Virus record (IMG/VR): IMGVR_UViG_2877948078_000004
Length of the DNA: 43,880 bases
Direction: 5' to 3' (one strand)
From: a virus
Taxonomy: Duplodnaviria > Heunggongvirae > Uroviricota > Caudoviricetes
The notes under the pieces were generated by a model. It did no database searches. It was not told the DNA's origin and saw only the letters and a program-made list of their open reading frames with translations. A program made the translations under genes and the position numbers. Within the stretch, counting starts at the first letter, position 1; each line of letters opens with the position of its first letter. Shown one piece after another: positions 98 through 42,192 of the stretch.

Positions 98-673
98 CTA
101 CGGCAGTGCTGGCCATTCAATATCCTGTGCAGTTGACGTATCAACACGGTTCAGCAACACCCGATACTTTTTCCAGGCTTCCAGCAATGAGGTTTCTTCC
201 TCCGTTGCGATTTCCAGATCTACAGCATCCTGAAGTGGCGCAATATGCTCACTGGCTACCTGCATCAGGCTGTTTTTTGTTTCTTCCGCCTCTCGGATCC
301 GGAACAGTTTTTCTGCTTCTGCATCTTTCACCCAGGCTGTGCCGTTCCACTTCTGAAACTCCCCTTCCGGCGATAACCAGGTAACATTTTCCGGTAACGG
401 ACCGAGTTCAGAAATAAATAACGCGTCCCCTGACGCTACGTCATAAACCGTTTTACCCCGATGGTCTTCAACGAGATGCCACGATGCCTTATCACTGTTG
501 AAAACAGCCACAAAGCCAGCAGGAATATCTGGTGGTGCAATATCGGTACTGTTTGCTGGCAGACCTGTATGAGGCGGAATATATGCGTCACCTTCACCAA
601 TAAATTCATTAGTTCCGGCCAGCAGATTATAAATTTTTATGGTCCGTGGTTGTTCACTCATTCTGAATGCCAT
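98..673 (-). CDS. tfa: Tail fibre assembly protein (lambda Tfa-like)
   Basis: 191 aa translation recognisably lambda Tfa-like ([21 protein letters not shown]...); immediately downstream of stf on the same strand with 1-nt overlap. Confidence 0.85.
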
Positions 674-23544: not shown

Positions 23545-23739
23545 ATGTCAACTAAGAACAGAACCCGCAGAACAACAACCCGCAACATCCGCTTTCCTAA
23601 CCAAATGATTGAACAAATTAACATCGCTCTTGAGCAAAAAGGGTCCGGGAATTTCTCAGCCTGGGTCATTGAAGCCTGCCGTCGGAGGCTAACGTCAGAA
23701 AAGAGAGCATATACATCAATTAAAAGTGATGAAGAATGA
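23545..23739 (+). CDS. ylcI: Small basic hypothetical protein (DLP12 YlcI-like)
   Basis: 64 aa ORF MSTKNRTRRTTTRNIRFPNQMIEQINIALEQKG…; position next to cos matches small right-end ORFs of lambdoid phages. Confidence 0.5.
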   Translation: MSTKNRTRRTTTRNIRFPNQMIEQINIALEQKGSGNFSAWVIEACRRRLTSEKRAYTSIKSDEE

Positions 23740-25883: not shown

Positions 25884-26377
25884 TGTTGCCCCCACAAACA
25901 GACTTCACGCTCAATCTCACGACGAGTCATCAGGCCTTTCCATTGCTTACCGCCAGCGTATGTCCAGCGACGCAGCTGATCACATGCGCCTTTGATATCG
26001 CCCTGGTTTATTTTGCGAAGAAGCGTCGATGTTCTAAAATTGCCAGCACCCACGTTGTAAACGAATGAGTAAAGAGCGCCGCGCGTTGTTTCCGGTATAT
26101 CGACTTTGATATACGGGTTAATTTGTCTGGCGACAGTGGCAAGGTCTTTATTCAAGAGTGCTTTGCATTCTGCTTTGGTATACGTTTTACCGAGCATGAT
26201 GTCTTTTCCGGTGTGTCCGTGACATACAGTCCATACACCAACAATATCTTTGTATGGTATGTAGCTGACACCTTCCAGACCATCGTTACCACTTGGGCCA
26301 GTGATTAACACTGATGCTATAGCAATTGCTCCGCCACCAATAGCAGCAGCAACGGCTTTTCGTAATGATGGAGGCAT
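25880..26377 (-). CDS. R: SAR endolysin (phage 21 R21-type lysozyme with N-terminal signal-anchor-release domain)
   Basis: 165 aa; N-terminal weakly hydrophobic Gly/Ala-rich SAR segment ([20 protein letters not shown]) followed by a lysozyme domain; sequence matches phage 21 R as I recall it. Confidence 0.85.
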
Positions 26378-28452: not shown

Positions 28453-28836
28453 TTAATTAGAGTTATTAACAACGATATCCATCTCTAACCGGATATCTAA
28501 TGCCATTAACATCCCTTCAATTATGCCCTCAGCCTTCTGTAACCTTTTCCCGATATAACCATCAGAGCAGCAATGCTTACCTGCCAGTGACATGAATGTC
28601 ATACCGACTACATAATAATCTACTAATAAATCGTGCAAATCGCTGTTGTTCTTTTTCAGACGGGCCATGCACCCGCAAATAATCATCGCGTCATCGTCAC
28701 AACATTGCGGGCGAGATTTTACTTTTGAAGTAATTAATCCCTTAAAACCGGCGGCAATGGACGACCAGGTCACATCTTCATGATTATTAGCCGCCCACGC
28801 TCCCCAACGCTCAAGAACCATCTGAATATCACGCAT
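28453..28836 (-). CDS. quuD: Late-gene antiterminator Q (QuuD / phage 82-type Q)
   Basis: 127 aa from [22 protein letters not shown]… with GGAG RBS; Cys-rich zinc-binding core ([12 protein letters not shown]…HCC); track ORF has 5 extra upstream codons from TTG. Confidence 0.8.
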
Positions 28837-28918
28837 CAACTTACTCCACAAAAATCAGACCAGAACGCCAATTACAAGCAAAAATCAACAAAACAGTATT
28901 AGTTGATTGTTATCTCTG

Positions 28919-30354: not shown

Positions 30355-30460
30355 GATGCAAAAAAACGCAGGTGCATTTCTGCATCTGTGGCAAGGCGAG
30401 GAGTTCAACTTGTGGTCGCATATAATTTCCCAATCATATGCGCAGAAGTCACCGCAGGGT
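30355..30460. repeat. Copy A of a ~105-bp imperfect direct repeat (terminator-like hairpin on - strand)
   Basis: Shares exact 21-mer AGGTGCATTTCTGCATCTGTG (30370..30390) and 15-mer GCGCAGAAGTCACCG (30441..30455) with copy B at 31852..31872 and 31922..31936; on - strand the 21-mer forms CAGATGCA-GAAA-TGCACCTG followed by U7. Confidence 0.7.
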
Positions 30461-30496
30461 GTTCAGGCCAACGGTGACGGTATTATTGCTTATTGA

Positions 30497-30748
30497 TTAT
30501 GATTTTTCAATTTCATCAATAACCTTGTGATAGACAATACCAGAAAGGCCAACAGACAGTGGATGTTCATGAAATATTGGCTCATTTGCATAAACCCAAT
30601 GCCCGACAAATTCTTCTGGGCTTGATATGTATAACTCACGAAGAAAATGGAGATCCCTCTCTACAACTAATTTCGTATCGTCCAAGAGCGCTGCATTTAC
30701 GCTAGTTTTATGGCTGTGCATTAATTTACATTTGGTGAAGGACATCAT
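30497..30748 (-). CDS. Hypothetical protein (83 aa)
   Basis: ORF with strong AAGGAG RBS; no recognisable family. Confidence 0.5.
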   Translation of the reverse strand: MMSFTKCKLMHSHKTSVNAALLDDTKLVVERDLHFLRELYISSPEEFVGHWVYANEPIFHEHPLSVGLSGIVYHKVIDEIEKS

Positions 30749-30807: not shown

Positions 30808-31422
30808 CTAACGTTGTTTAATAACATTCTGACGCAAATGTGGCAATACTCGACTCCACTTATCATCCTGCCACGGCTGGAATTTTACATGTGCCGTTTC
30901 TCTGGCGAGGATTGCTCGCGCTCTGGTGAGTATCTGGGGATATTCTTGCTCGATGGAAGTGAAGCGACCAGCTTCACGATGCTCCGCAACCTGAAGAAGG
31001 GGAGTAACGTTCTGGCAGGCGGTTAACATCGCATCCCCAGCTCGCCATAACCAAGCAAGTGTGCAAAGTTCGTTATCAGTGAATTGTTTTGTGATCGGGG
31101 ATTGTTGAACTTCTCGATCGAGAATATCCAGAACCCAGCGGCGGAACTCTTTGGCTACAGGAGTTCGTGCAAACATGGCGATCAAATGGGCTCCGCGAAG
31201 GCTAAATACTCGAGACTCCTGCATTCCACGAGGGGTGGTCACTTTGACCACCCTTGTCATCATATCTGTAAATTCATCTGAGTGACGAGAGTAAATGCGC
31301 TGAACTGCTTTATCGTCCGCATATTCCAGAGCTAAACCAACTTCAGTGGCAGTAAGCCAAATTCTGTTATTGTGGCAAATTGGGGTAAACGTCGTTTTGT
31401 GGAATGCTAATTGAGTAGTCAT
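30808..31422 (-). CDS. Bro-N domain protein (putative antirepressor-like / DNA-binding)
   Basis: 204 aa; N-terminal region (…NNRIWLTATEVGLALEYADDKAVQRIYSRHSDEF…SLRGAHLIAMFARTPVAKEFRRWVLDILDREV) fits the Bro-N/KilA-N-like pattern; GAGGTGA RBS. Confidence 0.5.
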   Translation of the reverse strand: MTTQLAFHKTTFTPICHNNRIWLTATEVGLALEYADDKAVQRIYSRHSDEFTDMMTRVVKVTTPRGMQESRVFSLRGAHLIAMFARTPVAKEFRRWVLDILDREVQQSPITKQFTDNELCTLAWLWRAGDAMLTACQNVTPLLQVAEHREAGRFTSIEQEYPQILTRARAILARETAHVKFQPWQDDKWSRVLPHLRQNVIKQR

Positions 31423-31685
31423 AGTTTCACCTCATCAGGTTAACCATCACCACCAACGACGCCAATCGACTGGTGGTGAACTGTGCAAGGTTGGCGTAAC
31501 CGGCTACTCAAATCCGGCGCTCCCGAAGAAGCCCTCACACAGCCCACCATAATTTGGGCGTAGCCGTGCTTAGCGCATAAAAAAACCGCTTAACGCGGTA
31601 TGCGTTGAGTAGTATTCCGGGACGCCAATCCCGTGTGCCGATTTTGCGGCAACGCACAGAATATATCCCCAGATAAATCATGTCG

Positions 31686-31775
31686 TCAACCCCAGTAAAT
31701 GGACACCATGATGATCACAGCCATAGCTGCTACAACAGTTACAACTACCTCAGGCCAAAACATAACGATTTCCAT
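31686..31775 (-). CDS. 29-codon hydrophobic peptide (possible small membrane toxin-like ORF)
   Basis: MEIVMFWPEVVVTVVAAMAVIIMVSIYWG with AAGGTGA RBS; single predicted TM helix; sits just downstream (on - strand) of repeat copy B. Confidence 0.3.
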   Translation of the reverse strand: MEIVMFWPEVVVTVVAAMAVIIMVSIYWG

Positions 31776-32033: not shown

Positions 32034-33930
32034 TTAATTATTTTTCTTTAACTTGAAATTTCTTCCCATTGCTAGTGTTCTTCGAAGATTCGAATCATAA
32101 GCTGGTTGATAATATCTATCATAAAAATCCTTAATTGTCTGATGGTAAGTATCCAGCATCAAACCATAAAACCCCATGACCTTAAGATAATCCACCAAGG
32201 GAAATAAATAATCATCAGTCTGAACATCAGTATCAATATTATTTTTTTGTTTTTTAACTTCAAATTTGTATAAGTTTAACTCACCCTTATCCATCGTGTA
32301 TGAAAAAAGGTCGTCAAAAATCAAATCAATTTTTGTCATAGGAACTCGTTCTTTTCCAGACATTATAGGTAGAATATCAATACCTAAGAGCGAACCTAAT
32401 ACAAAGTCGTAATGAAGCGAAATCACTGAGTCATTCGATGTCGAGTTGCCTTTGATAAATACTCTACTTAGTGCCGAGTCAAAAACATTCTCAACTCTCT
32501 CTCTCGTCATGTTTGCGACATCTACAACCCCCATATCACGAGAAGCTTTTATTGTGATTTCATCTATAAATGCTTTGGAATCTAGTGAATGTAAAAACAA
32601 CATGAAGTTATCTAACTGTTCAGAGCATTTAATAGCCACCATAAGATTTTCGTATATATCTTTTTTATACTCAATCGGTAAATTTGCTACCGCAAAAGCA
32701 GCATAAAATTCTTGCACTGATTTATGCAGAAAAACATACCTATTATTTCCCTCAGGTTGGATAAGGCAAGTTATCTCAATAAGATCATCTATAAAGTTTG
32801 ATGCATCTTCTTTAAGATAACCTTCTGTTTCAATAGCATCTTCAGCATATCTAAGCAACTCCTCTCCCCAAAACTCAAATTTCTCCTCAATCAGTGCGTT
32901 ATAGCAAATAGCTGAAAAACACAATTTAGCTTTTTCACCAATAATGTTTGATTTTTTCTCGCGCGTATATACTTTTATTTTATCATGCCTTGCATATAAG
33001 GTGTCAAAGAGGCTTCGATAAAACTCTATTATATTATTTGGAATATCATTCATATAAGGATAACAATAATACAAAAGAGTAACTAAAATTGGATTGCAAA
33101 TAGTTCCCTCAAGTTCTTCTTTATCACATAGTAAATCCGCCAAGACTTTAAACGAGGCATCACTACTTGAGAATCTGTCATTTTTCGATAAAGAATGAAG
33201 AATACAAATCTTATCAGAAATATTTAGCTTATCTATAAAAATATTATACACATCAGTAGTATAACATATATCTGTATTTGGTCTCGTTGTTGCGATAATT
33301 GGTGTGTTAAAATGATAATGAATGTTTTTTATTTCATTCATCATCATAGTTCGCTCTTCATGTTTAACCTCATCAAATCCATCCAACATTAAAACGACTC
33401 TTTGGGATTGCAGTAATATTTTCAAGCTATCCTCTGAACACCCCACACCAAATGAATTAAGAATGTCTGCCAGATAAGCAATAATATTTGCATTCTTCAC
33501 CCTTCTTAATTCAATAAAAAAAAGGCATCCGTTCTGATTTTTTTATTTCCTCGCTAAACAACTTGCGTAAAATAGTACTTTTCCCTTGCCCCGCTATACC
33601 GACTATATTTACAATACCATGAAATGGTAAAGTGACCCCATCTTTTATAACGACCTTGTCTTTATTAGATGCCACCTCAACAGTTAACGGATAATAAATA
33701 TCATCTAAAAAAATATCATAATCAGCGTTGTGCAAAGTTCTCATTTTCAGAGATGGTAGCACATGCTTTCTTAAATAATTTTCTCTTCCGAGGGGATCAT
33801 TTAATTGTTCGAGTATAACCTTGCCTTCATCTAGGTCCCTAGCCCAAGGTTTAGAGAGCAATACTTCTGTTATTTTTTCCGCAGCTTTTCCTACTGTGCT
33901 ATTAATAATAGTCGCAAGAAACTCATCCAT
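32034..33930 (-). pseudogene. NACHT/STAND-family P-loop NTPase, interrupted by a +1 frameshift at an A8/T8 homopolymer (33516..33523)
   Basis: Upstream ORF (33511..33987) ends just after Walker A (GIAGQGKST); downstream ORF (32034..33500) begins just before Walker B (VVLMLDGFDEV) and sensor-1-like IIATTRP. Removing one T from the T8 run (- strand) fuses both into a single ~630-aa reading frame. Low-GC island. Probable start at MDEFLATI (33930) with GGTGA RBS. Confidence 0.6.
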
Positions 33931-34318
33931 TTTTTCACCACATTCATTAACCAATACGTGGTGCATTCTTACAAGACTCAGTAACAATTGTCAATCATAG
34001 GTTTTCGCATGATTGCAAAACGCCATAAACAATTGTAGCACCATAATTTTAAACACTATATAATATACAACCTTCCTACAAGCATTCAGTACATCGCTTA
34101 ATCACAGGGCTTGAATATATAGTAAGGAATCGATATTAATCACCTCATCTACTTTAAACATCTTACACACCTATAATTTATAATAGTCAACACGAGGTCA
34201 TCATATTAAACATGCAATTACAAACATTCATTTTTATATAAATTTTCATGATTTAACCGTAGAGCGACGGTAATAAATTTCATATACAAGGATTTAAGCT
34301 CCCATACGTTTTCTATTA

Positions 34319-35196: not shown

Positions 35197-36122
35197 AAAT
35201 CCACCCCGTAAATCCAGTCAGTGTTCGTCAGGTCGAGTTTTGGTTTGCCGGCTGTCACGCCAGCCTGTTGCTTGTTTCGGTTGATTTCGAGCTGGGTCCA
35301 CTTGTCGCGGAGTTTGGCCGGACTTAGCACGTTACCGGACCAGAAGTTGTCCTGGCATGCCCAGCGGAACAGCACGCACATGTCGCGGTGGTTACGTCCG
35401 TCACGTTCACGCATCAGGCGGATATCGTTAGCCCACCCTGCAAAATTCGGTTTTCTGGCTGATGGCGCGATGGTCTTCACCATGTCAAACATCCACTCTG
35501 CGGCGGTCAGGTCTTCTGCTGTCCCCCACTTGCTGCCGCTCTGAATTGCAGCATCCGGTTTCACCACAGGAAGATCGTTTTCTGGTTGGTCAGAGGATTC
35601 GCCAGAATTCTCGGACGAAAAAGGTTTTATATTGTCTTTTGTTAGTTTGTCTTTTGTGTTTACCTGATTCGGGTAAACGCCTTTACCTGATTTGGGTAAA
35701 CTTTTTTTACCTGATTCAGGTAAATTTACCTCTTTCAGGTAAACTTTATTTTTCTTACCTGATTCGGGTAATGTTGACCATTCACTGACCACATTATTAA
35801 TGCCGATATTCCGCCCGCTCTGAATAAAAATCCCACGCTTTACCAGAACACTTTTTGCAGCAGAACACTTGTGCGGCAATATCCCGGTCAACTCGGAAAG
35901 TTGCTCGTTGCTCACCCAATCCAGTTTTTTATTAAAGCCATATGTTTTGCGCATGACAGCCAGGAAGACCAGAAGCTGGTGCTGTGTTAATCCGGCCAGC
36001 ATCACAGCTTCCAGCAACTCATTTGCAATGCGCGTATAACCATCATCGAGATCTGCCACGCGCGGCTCCTTTTGTGCCGCATCCGGCACTGGAAAATTGA
36101 ATATCTCAGCAGTGTTTGCCAT
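35193..36122 (-). CDS. O: Replication initiator O (origin-binding), different specificity type from lambda O
   Basis: Start chosen at MANTAEIFNFP… with GGGAGG RBS (track ORF begins 30 codons upstream); contains iteron-encoded repetitive segment and lambda O-like C-terminal P-interaction region; overlaps P start. Confidence 0.85.
   Translation of the reverse strand: MANTAEIFNFPVPDAAQKEPRVADLDDGYTRIANELLEAVMLAGLTQHQLLVFLAVMRKTYGFNKKLDWVSNEQLSELTGILPHKCSAAKSVLVKRGIFIQSGRNIGINNVVSEWSTLPESGKKNKVYLKEVNLPESGKKSLPKSGKGVYPNQVNTKDKLTKDNIKPFSSENSGESSDQPENDLPVVKPDAAIQSGSKWGTAEDLTAAEWMFDMVKTIAPSARKPNFAGWANDIRLMRERDGRNHRDMCVLFRWACQDNFWSGNVLSPAKLRDKWTQLEINRNKQQAGVTAGKPKLDLTNTDWIYGVDL
35661..35770. repeat. 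Replication origin iterons inside O (five ~19-bp repeats TTACCTGATTCGGGTAAAC-like) followed by AT-rich stretch
   Basis: Direct reading: tacctgattcgggtaaac / tacctgatttgggtaaac / tacctgattcaggtaaat / tacctctttcaggtaaac / tacctgattcgggtaat, each an imperfect palindrome. Confidence 0.85.
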
Positions 36123-36208
36123 AATTCCTCCCGCAATGAGTGTGTTACGATTTGCACCTGAAAGTCGGTTCTGTTCCAGCAGACCGGCTTTCGCCATTTC
36201 TGAACCTG

Positions 36209-36748
36209 TCATATCGCCCCCAGCATGGTAGTAACCATCGCCATCAATGGACCAGCCAGCTCTGGGTCCACACGAAACATCGACACAATACCTTCACTAA
36301 TTTCCTTCAGTTTCTGGTGGCGTGGTGCGTTGAGAATGACAGCCTGTTTTGCCTCACTGAGTTCCTTTTCCATTTCAGCCAACCTAGCCATGAAGCTATC
36401 CTGCTCAACCAGGTAACCGCGATATTCCAGCGGTAGTACCGCCAGAATTGCCGGGGTCAGTTCACGCACGTTATTTCGGTATTTTTCAGAATCGAATTTG
36501 TTATCGAGGAAGCGGAACAGCTTCTGGCGTGTACGGCTGACATCATCAGGGAAATCGATGGTGCCGCCGCCCTGCTCCCGATACTCATTCACAATGAGTG
36601 TGGCAACGACATCCTGATTATCTACAGCCGACCAGGCGCGGACGGCATCACGGATTTTTTCGTGGCCTGGCACCTGTTTTGTTTGAGAACGATTTATCAC
36701 CGCAGTCGGGCTAAATCCGCTAGTCTGTTGGTATGGAAGTGGTTGCAT
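36209..36748 (-). CDS. Hypothetical regulatory protein at the cII position (YdaT-like?)
   Basis: 179 aa with AAGGAG RBS between cro and O; too long for lambda CII; assignment to YdaT-like family is tentative. Confidence 0.4.
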   Translation of the reverse strand: MQPLPYQQTSGFSPTAVINRSQTKQVPGHEKIRDAVRAWSAVDNQDVVATLIVNEYREQGGGTIDFPDDVSRTRQKLFRFLDNKFDSEKYRNNVRELTPAILAVLPLEYRGYLVEQDSFMARLAEMEKELSEAKQAVILNAPRHQKLKEISEGIVSMFRVDPELAGPLMAMVTTMLGAI

Positions 36749-36817
36749 AATTGACTCCTTTAGTTTGAATTGACTGTTAAGTTGATTGCTTATTGTTAAA
36801 GAGCGTGAAATGGAAAT

Positions 36818-37048
36818 TTAAGCTGCGTTCTTTTCGGTGTGTGGAAACAACTTCGGAAGATCCGGGCGAATCTGGTATGCCTTCACTACTCCACCAGTAG
36901 CCGTAACAATGCTGCCGACATGTTCAGGGGATACCTTTGCTTTGTTGTGAAGCCACTTATAGACGGCCTGCTGTGAAACTTCGCAGGCAGCGCCCAGTTT
37001 CTTTTGTGAACCAACGATATTGATCGCTGTTTTGATAGCTGGGTTCAT
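36818..37048 (-). CDS. cro: Cro-like HTH repressor (YdaS/Cro family)
   Basis: 76 aa with HTH (QKKLGAACEVSQQAVYKWL), divergently transcribed from cI across the operator region. Confidence 0.75.
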   Translation of the reverse strand: MNPAIKTAINIVGSQKKLGAACEVSQQAVYKWLHNKAKVSPEHVGSIVTATGGVVKAYQIRPDLPKLFPHTEKNAA

Positions 37049-37145
37049 AACAACCTCCGTGGTTAATTTGAATCAAGATTAAAACTATGGTTGTTTTTAG
37101 TCAACAACCATTTTCGTTTGATGGAATAAAACCTTGGTTGTACAT
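37049..37145. promoter_or_regulatory. OR operator/promoter region (pR / pRM) between cro and cI
   Basis: Perfect palindrome ATGGTTGTT-N7-AACAACCAT at 37087..37111 plus additional GGTTGT/AACAACC half-sites at 37049..37055 and 37135..37140. Confidence 0.7.
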
Positions 37146-37152
37146 TTGGACT

Positions 37153-37842
37153 ATGAAAACAACACTCTCAGAAAGACTTAAAGAAGCCAGATTAGCGCGA
37201 GGCCTTACACAAAAGGCGCTTGGGGATTTGGTCGGGGTTAGCCAGGCTGCTATTCAGAAAATCGAAACAGGGAAAGCTAATCAAACAACTAAAATCGTGG
37301 AGATCGCGAACGCTTTGGGTGTGCGCGCAGAATGGTTATCTTCTGGCGTTGGAAATATGTCAGACAGTACAGTGCAACCAATACAATCAACTGTCAGCCA
37401 TTCCAAATACTTCAAGATTGACGTTCTTGATATAGAAGTCAGTGCTGGGCCGGGAGTCATCAACCGTGAGTTTGTAGAAGTTCTACGCTCGGTTGAGTAC
37501 TCGTTTGACGATGCTCGTCACATGTTCGATGGTAGGAAGGCAGAAAATATCCGCATCATTAACGTGCGTGGTGACAGCATGTCAGGAACGATCGAACCAG
37601 GTGATCTGCTGTTCGTTGATATCACGGTTAAATCTTTCGACGGTGATGGTATCTATGCATTTCTGTACGACGACACCGCCCATGTAAAGCGCCTGCAAAT
37701 GATGAAGGATAAACTGCTGGTTATCTCTGATAACAAGAGCTACTCACCGTGGGACCCTATCGAGAAAGACGAGATGAACCGGGTATTCATATTCGGTAAG
37801 GTTATTGGGAGCATGCCGCAGACGTACAGAAAACACGGATAA
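37153..37842 (+). CDS. cI: CI-like prophage repressor (HTH + S24 LexA-like autopeptidase domain)
   Basis: N-terminal HTH (LTQKALGDLVGVSQAAIQKIETGK), C-terminal S24 motifs (…VRGDSMSGTIEPGDLLFVD…KRL…). Start taken as MKTTLSERLKE (no SD, consistent with a leaderless pRM transcript); track ORF begins at 37087 inside the operator. Confidence 0.85.
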   Translation: MKTTLSERLKEARLARGLTQKALGDLVGVSQAAIQKIETGKANQTTKIVEIANALGVRAEWLSSGVGNMSDSTVQPIQSTVSHSKYFKIDVLDIEVSAGPGVINREFVEVLRSVEYSFDDARHMFDGRKAENIRIINVRGDSMSGTIEPGDLLFVDITVKSFDGDGIYAFLYDDTAHVKRLQMMKDKLLVISDNKSYSPWDPIEKDEMNRVFIFGKVIGSMPQTYRKHG

Positions 37843-37923
37843 TCAGCCGCGTGTTGATGAGGCTTTTGGGTAATACGCTGAAGAAAATACCTTATAAAAA
37901 ATAACATTACGGGAAAGGCAAAA

Positions 37924-38187
37924 ATGAGTAATAAAACACTTGTTAAAAAATCAAATAACTGTGTCGATGCATACGCCGACGCGTTTGGCTACTCTTCGTT
38001 TGGTGACGGCTCTCAGCGCCTAGGTTCAATTTCTTTTTTTCATAATGTAACTGAATGGCCTGTTGATGAAAGTGACGATGTTGAGAACATAAAGTACAAC
38101 ATTGCAACCATTAGAATGCCCGAAGAATTGATGCTTAAATTGGCTGACTTCATTCGCGACCAGCATGACAAAGCTAAAACAAACTAA
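37924..38187 (+). CDS. Hypothetical protein (87 aa) co-oriented downstream of cI (rexA position)
   Basis: ORF in AT-rich segment immediately after cI, same strand; no recognisable family. Confidence 0.5.
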   Translation: MSNKTLVKKSNNCVDAYADAFGYSSFGDGSQRLGSISFFHNVTEWPVDESDDVENIKYNIATIRMPEELMLKLADFIRDQHDKAKTN

Positions 38188-38199
38188 TCGTAATTAATT

Positions 38200-38643
38200 A
38201 TGAAACACGATTATTACGAAGCTCCAAACCTAAATGATAAAATTGCAAAGGCGGCAGAATCATTTTGTTTGCACTCCAGTGCGTCTTCCCAGCTAGCAGG
38301 TATATCTGGAAAAAGATGGGACATGCTACAATCAAGTGGTAGCAGTGGGTCTGGGAGTGATAACATGCCTGAAAAAGTTGCAAAACTGGAGTCCGATGTT
38401 GCTCATATCAAACGAGACGTTGATGAACTTAAAACAGACGTTAAAGCTATCGACAAAAATATGATAACTATTCTTGCACGTCTGGACTCTATAAAAGAAT
38501 CCTTAACAAACAAGCCATCAAGTGATGCTGTCGATAGAAAGATTTCAGACGCAAAGCTTGCGGTATTGCTTGGTGTTCCAGCAATCATCGCTGCAGGAAC
38601 AGGACTTTATAAGCTATCAATGTACTTTTTCTTTAGTGCTTAA
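38200..38643 (+). CDS. Hypothetical protein (147 aa) with coiled-coil region and C-terminal transmembrane helix (rexB position)
   Basis: Heptad-like charged region (KVAKLESDVAHIKRDVDELKTDVKAIDKNMITILARLDSIKESL) and C-terminal hydrophobic segment (LAVLLGVPAIIAAGTGLYKLSMYFFF). Confidence 0.5.
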   Translation: MKHDYYEAPNLNDKIAKAAESFCLHSSASSQLAGISGKRWDMLQSSGSSGSGSDNMPEKVAKLESDVAHIKRDVDELKTDVKAIDKNMITILARLDSIKESLTNKPSSDAVDRKISDAKLAVLLGVPAIIAAGTGLYKLSMYFFFSA

Positions 38644-38720
38644 GCAAATGCTCGCCCCCTTGCATTAGGTAAAGCGATTTTTCATTCCCCATTACCCTCG
38701 CTCTTAACCAATCATCTAAA

Positions 38721-38747
38721 CCCGGCCACCGTGCCGGGTTTTCTTTT
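38721..38747 (+). terminator. Intrinsic terminator after the cI operon (tImm-like)
   Basis: CCCGGC-CACCGT-GCCGGG followed by TTTTCTTTT on + strand. Confidence 0.6.
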
Positions 38748-38844
38748 GCCCTCCCCTCATCATACACCGTTCAAAAAAACCACCACGACCTCGCTTCAGT
38801 TATCGCTATGCGATGCAAGTCACAAAATAAATCCATCTTAAATA

Positions 38845-38910
38845 CAACCAGTTATATCTAAAACAACCAACAAAACAACTTTTGTTGTTGGCGATAAAAC
38901 AACTATAGTT
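38845..38910. promoter_or_regulatory. Candidate OL operators / pL promoter
   Basis: Repeated ACAACC/GGTTGT-type half-sites (same motif as OR), including palindrome CCAACAAAACAACTTTTGTTGTTGG; candidate -35 TTGTTG / -10 TATAGT (38904..38909) reading rightward on + strand. Confidence 0.5.
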
Positions 38911-39109
38911 TTAAATGAGTTCATCGCAACAACACAACGATACGGCAACCACCTGATTCACCGTTGCGATGACCGCTTAGATCCGCAGCTTGAATTTCAG
39001 CAGGCTTCGGGGAGTGCGAGGGATGAAACGGACGCGTGAACGTCGGTGTGACCAGCTGAAATCAACTCAACATTTCATACCTTAGTCGCTTCAACGAGGC
39101 GGCTTAGTT

Positions 39110-39400
39110 ATGACAACCGGCGGCCATCCACCGCCTGAATACGCGCAGAAGTCTTTATATGTTCAGCAGCCCAGCTTACGGGCAGGAGTTTTTATGGTTC
39201 ATCAACATTACGGAACGCAGACCGTTAATCGCGGTGCGGTCATGCCAGGAATGCTGGTCAAACGCAAAGATGGTACCTGGACTGCATCAGCTAATTTACG
39301 CGGACGACTTTATCTGCATCGCGGCATTGAGCGCACTTATACCCGTGACTTGCTCGTGGAAGTTTTTCTCGACGGACGCGGCAACGGTCTGAATCACTAA
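39110..39400 (+). CDS. Hypothetical early-left protein (kil/cIII position)
   Basis: 96 aa ORF directly upstream of and in frame with gam, separated by a TAA; no recognisable family. Confidence 0.4.
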   Translation: MTTGGHPPPEYAQKSLYVQQPSLRAGVFMVHQHYGTQTVNRGAVMPGMLVKRKDGTWTASANLRGRLYLHRGIERTYTRDLLVEVFLDGRGNGLNH

Positions 39401-39475
39401 TCCCCTTTCCTGTTTTCCGAATCAGCCTGGCATTCCGCGGGCGATTTTTTCACAGCCATTTTCAGGAGTTCAGCC

Positions 39476-39772
39476 ATGAACGCTTATTACATTCAGGATC
39501 GTCTTGAGGCTCAGAGCTGGGCGCGTCACTACCAGCAGATCGCCCGTGAAGAGAAAGAGGCAGAACTGGCAGACGACCTGGAAAAGGGTCTGCCCCAGCA
39601 TTTGTTTGAATCGCTCTGCATCGATCATTTGCAACGTCACGGGGCCAGCAAAAAAGCCATTACCCGTGCGTTTGATGACGATGTTGAGTTTCAGGAGCGC
39701 ATGGCAGAACACATCCGGTACATGGTTGAAACCATTGCTCACCACCAGGTTGATATTGATTCAGAGGTATAA
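39476..39772 (+). CDS. gam: Gam (GamS form), RecBCD inhibitor
   Basis: 98 aa [34 protein letters not shown]… matches lambda GamS; the upstream in-frame region resembles the lambda long-Gam N-terminus but is closed by a stop. Confidence 0.9.
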
Positions 39773-39777
39773 AACGG

Positions 39778-40563
39778 ATGAGTACAGCACTCGCAACGCT
39801 GGCTGGGAAGCTGGCTGAACGTGTCGGCATGGATTCTGTCGACCCACAGGAACTGATCACCACTCTTCGCCAGACAGCATTTAAAGGTGATGCCAGCGAT
39901 GCGCAGTTCATCGCATTGCTGATCGTCGCCAACCAGTACGGCCTTAATCCGTGGACGAAAGAAATTTACGCCTTCCCTGATAAGCAGAACGGCATCGTTC
40001 CGGTGGTGGGCGTTGATGGCTGGTCCCGTATCATCAATGAAAACCAGCAGTTTGATGGCATGGACTTTGAGCAGGACAATGAATCCTGCACATGCCGGAT
40101 TTACCGCAAGGACCGTAATCATCCGATCTGCGTTACCGAGTGGATGGATGAATGCCGCCGCGAACCATTCAAAACCCGCGAAGGCAGAGAAATCACGGGG
40201 CCGTGGCAGTCGCATCCCAAACGGATGTTACGTCATAAAGCCATGATTCAGTGTGCCCGTCTGGCCTTCGGATTTGCTGGTATCTATGACAAGGATGAAG
40301 CCGAGCGCATTGTCGAAAATACCGCATACACTGCAGAACGTCAGCCGGAACGCGACATCACTCCGGTTAACGATGAAACCATGCAGGAGATTAACACTCT
40401 GCTGATTGCCCTGGATAAAACATGGGATGACGACTTATTGCCGCTCTGTTCCCAGATATTTCGCCGCGACATTCGCGCATCGTCAGAACTGACACAGGTC
40501 GAAGCAGTGAAAGCTCTCGGATTCCTGAAACAGAAAGCCACTGAGCAGAAGGTGGCAGCATGA
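39778..40563 (+). CDS. bet: Bet (Red-beta single-strand annealing protein)
   Basis: 261 aa [66 protein letters not shown]… matches lambda Bet. Confidence 0.95.
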
Positions 40564-41240
40564 CACCGGACATTATCCTGCAGCGTACCGGGATCGACGT
40601 GAGAGCTGTCGAACAGGGGGATGATGCATGGCACAAATTACGGCTCGGCGTCATCACCGCTTCAGAAGTTCACAACGTGATAGCAAAGCCCCGCTCAGGA
40701 AAGAAGTGGCCTGACATGAAAATGTCCTACTTCCACACCCTGCTGGCTGAGGTTTGCACCGGTGTGGCTCCGGAAGTTAATGCTAAGGCGCTGGCCTGGG
40801 GAAAACAGTACGAGAACGACGCCAGAACCCTGTTTGAATTCACTTCCGGCGTGAATGTTACTGAATCCCCGATCATCTATCGCGACGAAAGTATGCGCAC
40901 CGCCTGCTCTCCAGATGGTTTATGCAGTGACGGCAACGGCCTTGAACTGAAATGCCCGTTTACCTCCCGGGATTTCATGAAATTCCGGCTCGGTGGTTTT
41001 GAGGCAATAAAATCGGCTTACATGGCCCAGGTGCAGTACAGCATGTGGGTGACGCGAAAAGATGCCTGGTACTTTGCCAACTATGACCCGCGCATGAAGC
41101 GTGAAGGCCTACATTATGTCGTGATTGAGCGGGATGAAAAGTACATAGCGAGTTTTGACGAGATGGTGCCGGAGTTCATCGAAAAAATGGACGAGGCACT
41201 GGCTGAAATTGGTTTTGTATTTGGGGAGCAATGGCGATGA
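40560..41240 (+). CDS. exo: Exo (Red-alpha 5'-3' exonuclease)
   Basis: 226 aa [65 protein letters not shown]… matches lambda Exo. Confidence 0.95.
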
Positions 41241-41419
41241 AGCATCCTCACGATAATATCCGGGTAGGCGCGATCACTTTCGTCTACTCCGTTACAAAGC
41301 GAGGCTGGGTATTTCCCGGCCTTTCTGTTACCCGAAATCCCCTGAAAGCACAGCGGCTGGCTGAGGAGATAAATAATAAACGGGGAGCTGTATGCACAAA
41401 GCATCTCCTGTTGAGTTAA
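41231..41419 (+). CDS. Small early-left protein (lambda orf60a-like)
   Basis: 62 aa ORF overlapping exo stop; position matches the small ORFs after exo in lambda. Confidence 0.5.
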
Positions 41420-41583
41420 GAACGAGCATTGAGATGGCACATAGCCTCGCTCAAATTGGAGTCAGGTTTGTGCCAATACCAGTAGAAACAGACGAAGAAT
41501 TTCATACGTTAGCCGCATCCCTTTCACAAAAGCTGGAGATGATGGTGGCGAAAGCAGAAGCAGATGAGAGAGACCAGGTATGA
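41392..41583 (+). CDS. Small early-left protein (lambda orf63-like)
   Basis: 63 aa ORF, translationally coupled to neighbours. Confidence 0.5.
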   Translation: MHKASPVELRTSIEMAHSLAQIGVRFVPIPVETDEEFHTLAASLSQKLEMMVAKAEADERDQV

Positions 41584-41663
41584 CAACCACTGAATGCATT
41601 TTTCTGGCAGCGGGCTTCATATTCTGTGTGCTTATGCTTGCCGACATGGGACTTGTTCAATGA
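41580..41663 (+). CDS. 27-codon hydrophobic peptide
   Basis: MTTTECIFLAAGFIFCVLMLADMGLVQ; start overlaps upstream stop (ATGA) and its stop overlaps the next start (ATGA). Confidence 0.3.
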   Translation: MTTTECIFLAAGFIFCVLMLADMGLVQ

Positions 41664-41875
41664 CACCTCAGCAAGAAAACGCCCTTCGCAGTATTGCCCG
41701 TCAGGCTAATTCTGAAATCAAAAAAGCCAGACAGCAGTTTCCGGATAAAAACGTCGATGACATTTGCCGTAGCGTACTTAAGAAGCACCGCGAAACGGTA
41801 ACGCTGATGGGATTCACACCGACTCATTTAAGCCTGGCGATCGGCATGTTAAACGGCGTCTTTAAGGAACGGTGA
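41660..41875 (+). CDS. Small early-left protein (lambda orf61-like)
   Basis: 71 aa from MTPQQENALRSIARQANSEIKKARQQF…; track ORF extends 22 codons upstream. Confidence 0.5.
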   Translation: MTPQQENALRSIARQANSEIKKARQQFPDKNVDDICRSVLKKHRETVTLMGFTPTHLSLAIGMLNGVFKER

Positions 41876-41896
41876 ACATGAAAAGCAAAATCATCA

Positions 41897-41920
41897 GGGA
41901 GCTACAGGCTCCTTTTTTAT
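41897..41920 (+). terminator. Intrinsic terminator-like hairpin
   Basis: GGGAGC-TACA-GGCTCC followed by TTTTTTATT on + strand. Confidence 0.5.
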
Positions 41921-41973
41921 TGTTCGCATTCATCCTCAAGCGTATTAACCAACAATTCAGGGATTAATGGAAG

Positions 41974-42192
41974 ATGGCAGACATCATTGATTCAGCATCA
42001 GAAATCGAAGAATTACAGCGCAATACAGCAATAAAAATGCGTCGTCAGAACTACCAGACTGTATCCGCAACTCATTGTTGTGAGTGTGGCGATCCGATAG
42101 ATGAGCGAAGACGCCTGGCTGTTCAGGGTTGTCGGACTTGTGCAAGTTGCCAGGAGGAGATCGAACTTAAGAACAAACAATGGGGACTGTGA
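41974..42192 (+). CDS. TraR/DksA-family C4 zinc-finger protein
   Basis: 72 aa with CxxC-N17-CxxC (CCECGDPIDERRRLAVQGCRTCASC), typical of phage TraR-like proteins. Confidence 0.75.
   Translation: MADIIDSASEIEELQRNTAIKMRRQNYQTVSATHCCECGDPIDERRRLAVQGCRTCASCQEEIELKNKQWGL

Follow-up and report, generated by a model that had tools for sequence, protein, structure and literature searches.

A conserved untranslated leader without recognisable N, nut or put sequences precedes kil and gam in a lambdoid prophage module common in Escherichia coli

The delayed-early programme of lambdoid phages follows two textbook routes, i.e. N and its nut sites in phage lambda and the put RNAs in phage HK022. Nus antitermination that uses boxA only, as in rrn operons, CRISPR arrays and suhB, counters Rho rather than intrinsic terminators. 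In lambda, about 2.4 kb lie between OL1 (35591) and gam (33232), and they carry N, sieB, orf28, ral, ea10, cIII and kil. Here the corresponding early-left region of the IMG/VR record IMGVR_UViG_2877948078_000004 was analysed, a stretch of 43,880 nucleotides that is called the window and whose + strand runs in lambda's leftward direction. In this region a long untranslated leader separates the predicted left promoter pL from the gene kil, and recognisable N, nut or put sequences were not found. N-less lambdoid phages have been recognised before, and put has been the usual guess for them (PMC12315714). It is known that putL starts at the 5′ end of the transcript, and that put acts in cis on RNA polymerase via the beta-prime zinc-binding domain and without protein factors (PMC9378689). 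The N-like protein Gp17 of mEp021 is encoded in the rightward operon, so that N-like genes can have unusual locations (PMC11893012). A literature search yielded no publication on phage Perceval, a member of the clade described here, or on N loss in this clade.

The early-left operon of the window is unusually compact, as a first-pass annotation made from the sequence alone had stated. The predicted start of pL and the ATG of gam (39476..39772, +; 98 aa, assigned by its reading frame and its identity to lambda) are separated by only about 555-560 bp, compared with the roughly 2.4 kb of lambda, and kil is the sole gene in between. The order on the + strand past pL is ~277 nt without a real gene, a 96-aa open reading frame (ORF), gam, bet, exo, xis and int. 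With lambda and phi80 the locus shares the position of the operon, the logic of promoter and operators, a boxA after cro and lambda DNA from the end of kil onwards (96.6% identity); it differs from them in that N, boxA and boxB on the pL transcript, tL1, and a boxB hairpin after the cro boxA are missing. HK022, HK639, HK75, phiEt88 and CobraSix are likewise lambdoid phages without a functional N that have a conserved non-coding RNA at the 5′ end of the pL transcript, and in HK639 and CobraSix kil, gam and recombination genes follow downstream. In contrast to these put phages, the window has no match to put in sequence or structure and no counterpart after cro, and it is devoid of the genes and the tL1 terminator that HK022-type phages keep between put and a 62-nt RNA element described below. 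In mEp237 and in prophages of Citrobacter, Kluyvera, Enterobacter and Silvania, pL also stands directly before a structured leader (80-250 nt), which is followed by kil, N is absent, and the Cro and CII analogues are of the YdaS/YdaT type as here. However, the leader sequences of these phages are unrelated to that of the window save for the theme of a 5′ hairpin, and only the clade of the window has the 62-nt post-tL1 element together with the lambda Red genes.

In the relatives that bear N or put (phi80; HK639 and CobraSix) a block of about 0.7-1.2 kb lies between the 5′-terminal hairpin of the transcript and the 62-nt element. This block consists of nut or put, N or other genes, and tL1, and in the window about 120 nt of clade-specific non-coding sequence are found instead. 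On balance, it is probable that the whole nut/put-N-tL1 cassette is absent, that kil and the Red genes are immediate-early genes, and that the leader acts on the stability or the translation of the mRNA. As the antiterminator and the first terminator are both missing, kil-gam-bet-exo would be immediate-early from pL; they would be transcribed directly from this promoter, with the CI-type repressor as their sole control. A cis effect on its own mRNA is the most likely role of the conserved leader. Its first hairpin would stabilise the 5′ end, while hairpin H1 of the 62-nt element would sequester the Shine-Dalgarno sequence and the AUG of a short upstream frame, which here runs in frame into kil. 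Together the leader hairpins would limit and time the production of the toxic Kil protein and would shield the long untranslated stretch from Rho. If these phages need no early antitermination, kil and the Red genes would be immediate-early, and the timing of prophage induction and of Kil toxicity would change; the alternative is that an unrecognised mechanism is at work.

The predicted pL was located within the OL operators (38872..38915, +), AAAAC-N7-GTTTT palindromes that are present at pR, too. Its putative -35 element is TTGTTG (38882-38887, +), and its -10 element could be TATAGT (38904-38909, +) or TTTAAA (38910-38915, +). A 19-nt operator (38896-38914) is 95% complementary to 37079-37097, which overlaps pR, and from this shared operator copy the -10 element was predicted to lie at 38904-38915 and the transcript start at about 38916-38922 (+). 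The pL promoter of phi80 is annotated with the -10 element TTTAAT, which is followed by CCATCG. With the predicted start, the untranslated leader of ~277 nt extends from about 38917 to 39193. It is tripartite, with a shared 5′ hairpin, ~120 nt that occur only in the clade, and the covarying 62-nt RNA element.

Folding placed the first part, hairpin A (CAUCGCAAC ... GUUGCGAUG, 9 bp; 38922..38971, +), at the 5′ end of the pL transcript. The first ~35 nt of the leader (CAUCGCAACAACACAACGAUACGGCAACC) find their match at the beginning of pL transcripts from loci with boxA or nut, and the 5′ arm and loop of hairpin A (38922-38950) are 83-93% identical to the loci L161, L177, L119, L160 and L110. In these five loci the match is situated ~0.75-1.2 kb upstream of the post-terminator element, and further along, the loci that share the start of hairpin A have a boxA, in some cases also a boxB-like hairpin, and then genes, a terminator and the 62-nt element. 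The pL transcripts of phi80 and HK639 open with a similar hairpin (CCAUCGAAACGAAACAUCGA), and prophages of other genera have GACAAC-N9-GUUGUC at the same place. As similar 5′ hairpins occur in several phage types, a hairpin at the extreme 5′ end is a shared feature. The second part, the unique middle of ~120 nt (about 38951-39072), includes the clade-specific core (38973..39072, +) with the predicted hairpins B (38982-39011) and C (GACG-CGUGAA-CGUC, 39031-39044). Relatives of the unique segment were sought in phages, in E. coli genomes and in 120 IMG/VR loci, and none were found beyond the clade; relatives exist for no more than the first ~30 nt of hairpin A. In locus L194 a match of 56 nt was discarded, because it was on the wrong strand and at the end of the locus.

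The third part, the 62-nt RNA element (39076..39137, +), is formed by the hairpins H1 (39076-39112) and H2 (39119-39135). H1 comprises 15 bp with a covarying upper stem; the AUG at 39110 is paired in its conserved base (CAUA/UAUG), and GAGG is part of its 3′ arm. H2 (GGCGG-CCAUCCA-CCGCC) is near-invariant. A covariance model that was built solely from other phages (R2) recovered a single copy in the window with 85.2 bits (E = 3e-19), while no match was obtained in lambda, mEp237 or the prophages of other genera. With 40 distinct sequences, the proposed pairs were formed in 97.6% of the cells, compared with 31-51% when the partners were slid. Six pairs changed on both sides (77 cells), and none of 500 shuffles reached the observed score. 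The 62-nt element is a covarying structured RNA. A conserved peptide (MTTGGHPPP) was considered as the main constraint and was rejected, as several relatives shift frame across H2 and yet keep the hairpin; because the peptide frame is not conserved across H2, the constraint on the element acts on the RNA. H1 was likewise rejected as an intrinsic terminator, because its 3′ flank (UUAGUUAUGA or AAGUUAUGA) has no U-tract and a conserved AUG lies inside. In some phages H2 has a U7 tail and resembles a true terminator.

The location of the 62-nt element in other phages bears on the missing block. In phi80 it comes directly after N and tL1A, and in HK225, CobraSix, S9-5 and HK639 a strong terminator precedes it. 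When IMG/VR was scanned for the pattern, about 50-60 distinct instances emerged, nearly all after a GC-rich terminator hairpin and a U-run (the loci with the element are L004, L009, L010, L011, L094 and L105-L222). Elsewhere the U-run of the terminator adjoins the CAUACCU of the element, whereas here the preceding sequence is AAUCAACUCAACAUUU and forms no hairpin. Apart from a "terminator" label on H2 in HK639 the element is unannotated, and it has no Rfam family match here. An Rfam search of 36000-40000 gave no relevant match in the leader; a weak isrJ match (20.8 bits, E = 1.3) was merely the hairpin of the tImm-type terminator upstream of pL.

The module from this terminator to kil was found with 86-100% identity in 80 IMG/VR loci, and an alignment of 73 unique relatives was used for all variability counts. 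Of 5426 complete E. coli genomes, 2021 contain most of the module. The 100-nt core (38973-39072) occurs with at least 90% identity in 2210 of these genomes (41%); it is full-length in all but one of them and was never annotated. A wider stretch (38950-39085) is contained in 16 deposited phage genomes. It is an ordinary, very common prophage module rather than an oddity; about 40% of complete E. coli genomes, plus the deposited isolates Perceval, 4A7 and IdasGreatGrand, have a module without N/nut and without put. The nucleotide diversity of the leader was 0.024 for 38957-39072 and 0.019 for 39073-39193, compared with 0.062 for third and 0.004 for first and second codon positions of kil and 0.125 for the spacer upstream of pL. 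Although it does not code, the leader is constrained, and it evolves about three times more slowly than the third codon positions of kil. Three immunity regions are joined to this one leader. Group A includes the window; group B, to which Perceval belongs, keeps the leader from about +5; and the O157:H7 type keeps it from 38957, with the first 40 nt replaced. In the other immunity types the operator/promoter region has been swapped wholesale and the leader has been retained.

The absence of a recognisable N, which the first-pass annotation had claimed, was corroborated by every search that was performed. A PHROG profile scan of 20 early ORFs and a Pfam scan of seven ORFs detected no member of an N family; the former did find Q (28453-28851), the presence of which had been noted before, as well as NinB, RusA, an antirepressor, a Ren-like protein, a DksA-like protein and Xis. 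With tblastn of lambda N, HK022 Nun and phi80 N, no E-value fell below 0.75, and a protein-database search also gave no N, Nun or phi80 N. Arginine-rich N-termini were not found among the ORFs of the early region, and in the complete annotation of IdasGreatGrand, a deposited relative, a Q-like protein is listed and N is not. As profile searches of the early ORFs revealed neither an N nor a Nun homologue, early-left expression must be N-independent, as had been proposed. A 64-aa ORF between the terminase and lysis regions (23545-23739, +) has an arginine-rich N-terminus (MSTKNRTRRTTTRNIRFP...). Judged by eye, its product is similar to DNA-binding proteins of the ribbon-helix-helix (Arc/Mnt-like) type, and the ORF does not qualify as an N candidate.

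A 20-codon arginine-rich ORF in the leader (MKRTRERRCDQLKSTQHFIP) had been suggested to be an N remnant. It does exist and ends with a TAG, but it extends from the ATG at 39023 to the TAG at 39083-39085 (+), 2 nt away from the coordinates first given (39021..39083). The stop codon is TAG in 34 and CAG in 39 of the 73 unique relatives, the start codon is ATG in only 20 and GTG (or GGG) in 53, and a frameshifting insertion of 5 nt is present in four. The variable columns are distributed 9/5/5 over the codon positions, without a third-position bias, in contrast to 0/4/23 in kil. No Pfam match was obtained, and when the 68-aa upstream translation was compared with 5.8 billion proteins, 35 matches were obtained, all of them E. 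coli ORFs from the same locus. The polymorphic start and stop, the frameshifts, the missing codon-position bias and the lack of homologues elsewhere ruled it out as a gene, and it is not under coding selection. The frame is shared with kil, and the single 139-aa "Kil" annotated in Perceval spans both. The arginine codons (CGG ACG CGT GAA CGT CGG) make up both arms of hairpin C, and the ORF is rich in arginine because these arms are CG-rich.

These results also bear on the question whether the small ORF and hairpin C are a decayed nutL-N region. A deletion from early N to the U-run of tL1 would have fused ~17 N codons to the post-tL1 element, and the phages would have survived by an N-independent bypass. 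The peptide KRTRERR does resemble the lambda N motif TRRRERR, and the junction at 39073 (UUUCAUACCU) falls on the point at which the tL1 U-run of the relatives meets CAUACCU. Hairpin C (CGUGAACGU) agrees with the putative nutL core of phi80 (CGUAAACGU) at 8 of 9 positions, a likeness that has a probability of ~2% by chance (our own estimate, before multiple looks), and a boxA survives after cro. However, no boxA precedes hairpin C, no extant protein has this N-terminus, 53 of the 73 relatives have GTG or GGG in place of the start codon, and the CG-rich arms of the hairpin account for the arginine codons. Moreover, a pseudogene should decay, and yet the segment evolves more slowly than synonymous sites. 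Such an origin is therefore regarded as very unlikely.

The suggestion that a cis-acting RNA like put replaces N was examined with a covariance model (R1) of nine put RNAs, namely putL and putR of HK022 and putL of PDP110P2, UPF_BP1, phiEt88, CobraSix, S9-5, HK639 and PdC23; the alignment shows invariant motifs and a covarying stem II. R1 recovered all eight putL (61-102 bits) and four putR (51-55 bits), three of which were outside the training set. On 36000-40000 of the window, with filters off, the best score was 3.0 bits (E = 2.5), and there was nothing in the pL leader (38917-39193). No match was found in 68 related loci either, one of which was the whole IdasGreatGrand genome. The invariant put motifs GAACG, GUCGG, GGCGGG and CAAU are absent from the leader, which matches the put consensus GAACGGCGCG ... 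GUCGG ... GGCGGGUUCAGGAUGAACGGCAAU with its two stems neither in sequence nor in structure. The folding of the early transcripts, which had been recommended as a check, gave no put structure, and the gap between cro and cII, where putR would be located, is unstructured (dG -4.3). A short local resemblance of GGAUGAAACGG to GGAUGAACGG in put stem II had been noticed by eye and was dismissed on the basis of R1. With at most 3 bits around pL and pR compared with 51-102 bits for known put sites, the chance that the leader carries a divergent put RNA of the HK022 type is practically negligible. A nutL site was not detected either, as GCTCTT(T)A is absent from the + strand after pL, whereas L161, L160 and phi80 have a boxA and a hairpin with an A-rich loop at this position. 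At the nutR position a boxA (CGCUCUUUAACAA, 36793-36805) is present and no hairpin follows it.

A different idea is that the unique part of the leader (hairpins A-B-C, ~38922-39072) is a new factor-independent antiterminator RNA that acts in cis like put and is unrelated to it in sequence. Like putL, it begins at the 5′ end of the transcript (PMC9378689); it is non-coding and yet subject to purifying selection, and it fills exactly the slot that nut or put occupies in the relatives. In addition, phages of the clade that were deposited as isolates have no N and keep terminator-like hairpins downstream. If it were true, the leader would represent an unrecognised RNA class that passes lambda-type leftward terminators without N, nut or put. 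However, the pR transcript has no second copy of the leader, only a 15-nt match, whereas the put phages that were checked have both putL and putR, and in group B the cro-cII gap is just 33 nt long. No covariation on both sides of a helix was found, the folding z-score was -0.1, and in relatives of the O157 type another sequence stands in place of the first 40 nt. The leaders of N-less relatives in other genera are unrelated and far shorter, with a minimum of ~80 nt. A new antiterminator RNA of this kind is thus deemed unlikely.

On the pR side, the genes for the YdaS-type Cro (36818-37048, -) and the YdaT-type CII analogue (36209-36748, -) lie on the same strand as O. The gap between cro and cII (69 nt) is C-rich and G-poor (C/G about 2.3) as well as unstructured, and it contains an rrn-type boxA (CGCUCUUUAACAA, CGCTCTTTAACAA; 36793..36805, -) 13 nt past the cro stop codon on the pR transcript. 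This site agrees at 12 of 13 positions with TGCTCTTTAACAA (boxA consensus UGCUCUUUAACAA), and it is the only site in the window with two mismatches or fewer. The present segment is CGCUCUUUA, and CGCAGAUUA is proposed as an example of a mutant form. The boxA was found in 35 related loci and in IdasGreatGrand, and all that were checked belong to group A. As in the boxA-only Nus systems, it lies early in a long operon and in an untranslated gap prone to Rho; it differs from the rrn-type systems in that it is present on pR only, in one immunity group only, and is known from sequence. The boxA may recruit host Nus factors against Rho-dependent termination. A second boxA-like 9-mer (YGCTCTTTA[AC]) at 26070-26078 (-), within the endolysin gene on the strand of the late operon, is probably due to chance.

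Two short elements near this boxA have counterparts in the pL leader. A 15-nt element (CGCAGCUUAAAUUUC, 36813..36827, -) agrees with 38984-38998 of the leader at 14 of 15 positions, and a 13-nt element (AAUCAACUUAACA, 36775-36787, -) matches 39060-39072; on pR the two flank boxA. It is conceivable that they are the targets of an unrecognised trans-acting antiterminator protein, which would be encoded elsewhere in the prophage. The elements are collinear at positions like those of nutL and nutR, the early region encodes small proteins without known function (phrog_4612, 9613, 1998, 292, 303 and 285), and the N-like gene of mEp021 sits in an unusual place (PMC11893012). However, no early ORF has an arginine-rich N-terminus, and the small ORFs after exo are the lambda genes orf60a, orf63 and orf61, and lambda still needs N. 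Measured against the whole window, neither of the shared elements reaches significance (E = 2.3 for the 15-nt match), and both are absent from the pR regions of group B phages that have the same leader. With respect to the YdaT operator TTGATT-N6-AATCAA (PMC9986795), the shared elements contain single half-sites only. Taken together, such a protein is considered quite unlikely.

Several observations weigh against the favoured reading, i.e. immediate-early expression of kil and the Red genes with a leader that acts on the mRNA. Terminator-like hairpins persist in both early operons, and they would have to be read through without an antiterminator. On the pL path they are situated at 39425 (+; dG -11.3) and at 41896..41924 (+; 8 bp and U6, identical to lambda, dG -10.2, z -3.1), the latter upstream of the gene for the DksA-like protein, xis and int. 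On the pR path they comprise the terminator of an IsrK-like RNA (31599-31585, -) and a hairpin at 30387-30364 (-), and the sites on both paths are the same in IdasGreatGrand. The unique ~120 nt are under purifying selection for which only putative purposes can be named. The folding z-scores are unremarkable (-0.1 for the leader core, and -1.7), and within the clade the substitutions in helices are one-sided and mostly keep a G-U pair, with none compensated on both sides (alifold); no covariation links 39007 with 39028. None of the checked group B loci, with their 33-nt gap, has the boxA after cro, and this boxA overlaps a direct repeat (CTTTAACA / CTTAACA). This repeat could belong to a pRE promoter on the other strand that is activated by YdaT/CII (PMC8630535, PMC9986795). 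The conserved leader, the 62-nt element and the boxA after cro are concrete targets for mutation.

Another boxA core (CGCTCTTAA, 38699..38707, +), identical to that of lambda, had been reported before the tImm-type terminator. The sequence is present at this position, but a role could not be assigned to it. It occurs in just 6 of the 73 unique relatives, which share the same upstream cargo gene, and it is part of a cargo cassette, at its 3′ end; at least 20 such cassettes alternate in this place. As it is upstream of pL, it is not on the pL transcript. It is an incidental match outside the conserved module.

The first-pass annotation had described the 96-aa ORF before gam (39110-39400) as lacking an arginine-rich motif. 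The ORF is present, and a profile search, which had been advised, revealed its nature, as it matches phrog_294 with E = 1e-37. The match spans residues 1-68 of Kil (E = 1.5e-36), the gene lies between pL and gam, and the RefSeq name is phage-encoded cell division inhibitor. The product is thus assigned to the Kil family, and inhibition of FtsZ is presumed from this membership. The gene kil (39194..39400, +; 68 aa) starts at an ATG six bases past the Shine-Dalgarno sequence AGGAG (39184-39188), which is preceded by the hairpin GCCC-AGCUUAC-GGGC (39169-39183). The DNA similarity to the kil genes of mEp237 and of Klebsiella phages begins exactly at this ATG, and a kil gene of 207 nt is annotated in HK225, mEp237 and the RefSeq record of O157:H7. 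The variable columns at codon positions 1/2/3 are 0/4/23 (39194-39400), a clean coding signature, and the coding constraint is confined to the 68-aa part of the ORF. The in-frame extension of 28 codons from the AUG at 39110 (MTTGGHPPP...) is near-invariant in DNA, with 6 of 84 columns variable. In view of the conserved start at 39194, the 96-aa ORF is an over-extension of the 68-aa Kil.

The annotation of Kil is inconsistent among relatives, with 68 aa in RefSeq, HK225 and mEp237, 96 aa in IdasGreatGrand and 139 aa in Perceval (L002, 4258-4677). The length is corrected here to 68 aa instead of 96 or 139, and the arginine-rich mini-ORF is struck from the list of genes. The lambda-type DNA begins inside the last two codons of kil; 39394-42169 is 96.6% identical to lambda 33193-30418 and comprises gam, bet, exo, orf60a, orf63, orf61 and sequences beyond, with both terminator-like hairpins of the pL path among them.

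On the pR path, a promoter-like site (TTGAAA-17-AATAAT; 30510-30482, -) was found ~1.6 kb upstream of Q. It is homologous to a putative promoter and "possible regulator-binding site" in front of orf33-orf151(ninB)-rus-Q of phage 82 (X92588), and the region 30450-30510 is also homologous to the IR4 repeats of phi80. In view of this putative promoter, Q may not depend on read-through from pR, and the ninB-rusA-Q block may have a promoter of its own.

Further upstream on this path, 31469-31689 (-) contains a promoter-like sequence (TTGACG-18-TATATT, 31689-31660), an IsrK-family small RNA (RF01394, 60.7 bits, 31579-31651) with its own terminator, and a C4 antisense RNA (RF01695, 72.4 bits, 31469-31554), which are followed by the gene for an Ant-type antirepressor (30808-31422). 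This module in the pR-to-Q path combines two styles of antirepressor control by RNA, that of Gifsy-1 (IsrK/AnrP), the isrK locus of which is related to it, and that of phage P1 (C4/ant). Between the Ren-like gene and the IsrK module an AT-rich island (32034-34200, -) is dense in promoter-like sites; its ORFs of 158 and 488 aa match phrog_18297 (the larger one also phrog_32986), to which no function is assigned, and they are probably moron or defence cargo.

The gene for the CI-type repressor (37153-37842, +; helix-turn-helix and S24 peptidase domains) is followed by two cargo ORFs (37924-38187 and 38200-38643, +) and by the tImm-type intrinsic terminator (CCCGGCCACCGTGCCGGG + TTTTCTTTTG; 38718..38750, + strand, with the hairpin at 38718-38741 and then a U-run), which was predicted by a terminator scan with dG -15.1 kcal/mol. 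The terminator is homologous to that of mEp237, and it is the constant right-hand edge of a variable cargo slot 3′ of cI. This slot (37843-38717 in the window; loci L013-L092) is a cargo hotspot, as at least 20 different cassettes adjoin the terminator CCCGGCCACCGTGCCGGG in the relatives. Examples are a SIR2-family gene in O157:H7 (L104) and 1-kb genes of no known function in IdasGreatGrand and Perceval. The window itself carries an 87-aa ORF (phrog_4231) and encodes a coiled-coil protein of 147 aa (phrog_3556) that has a hydrophobic stretch at its C-terminus. Far from the early region, an Rfam match to IS009 (RF02111, 226.7 bits) was obtained at 132-330 (-), in the tail-fibre region near the left end of the window.

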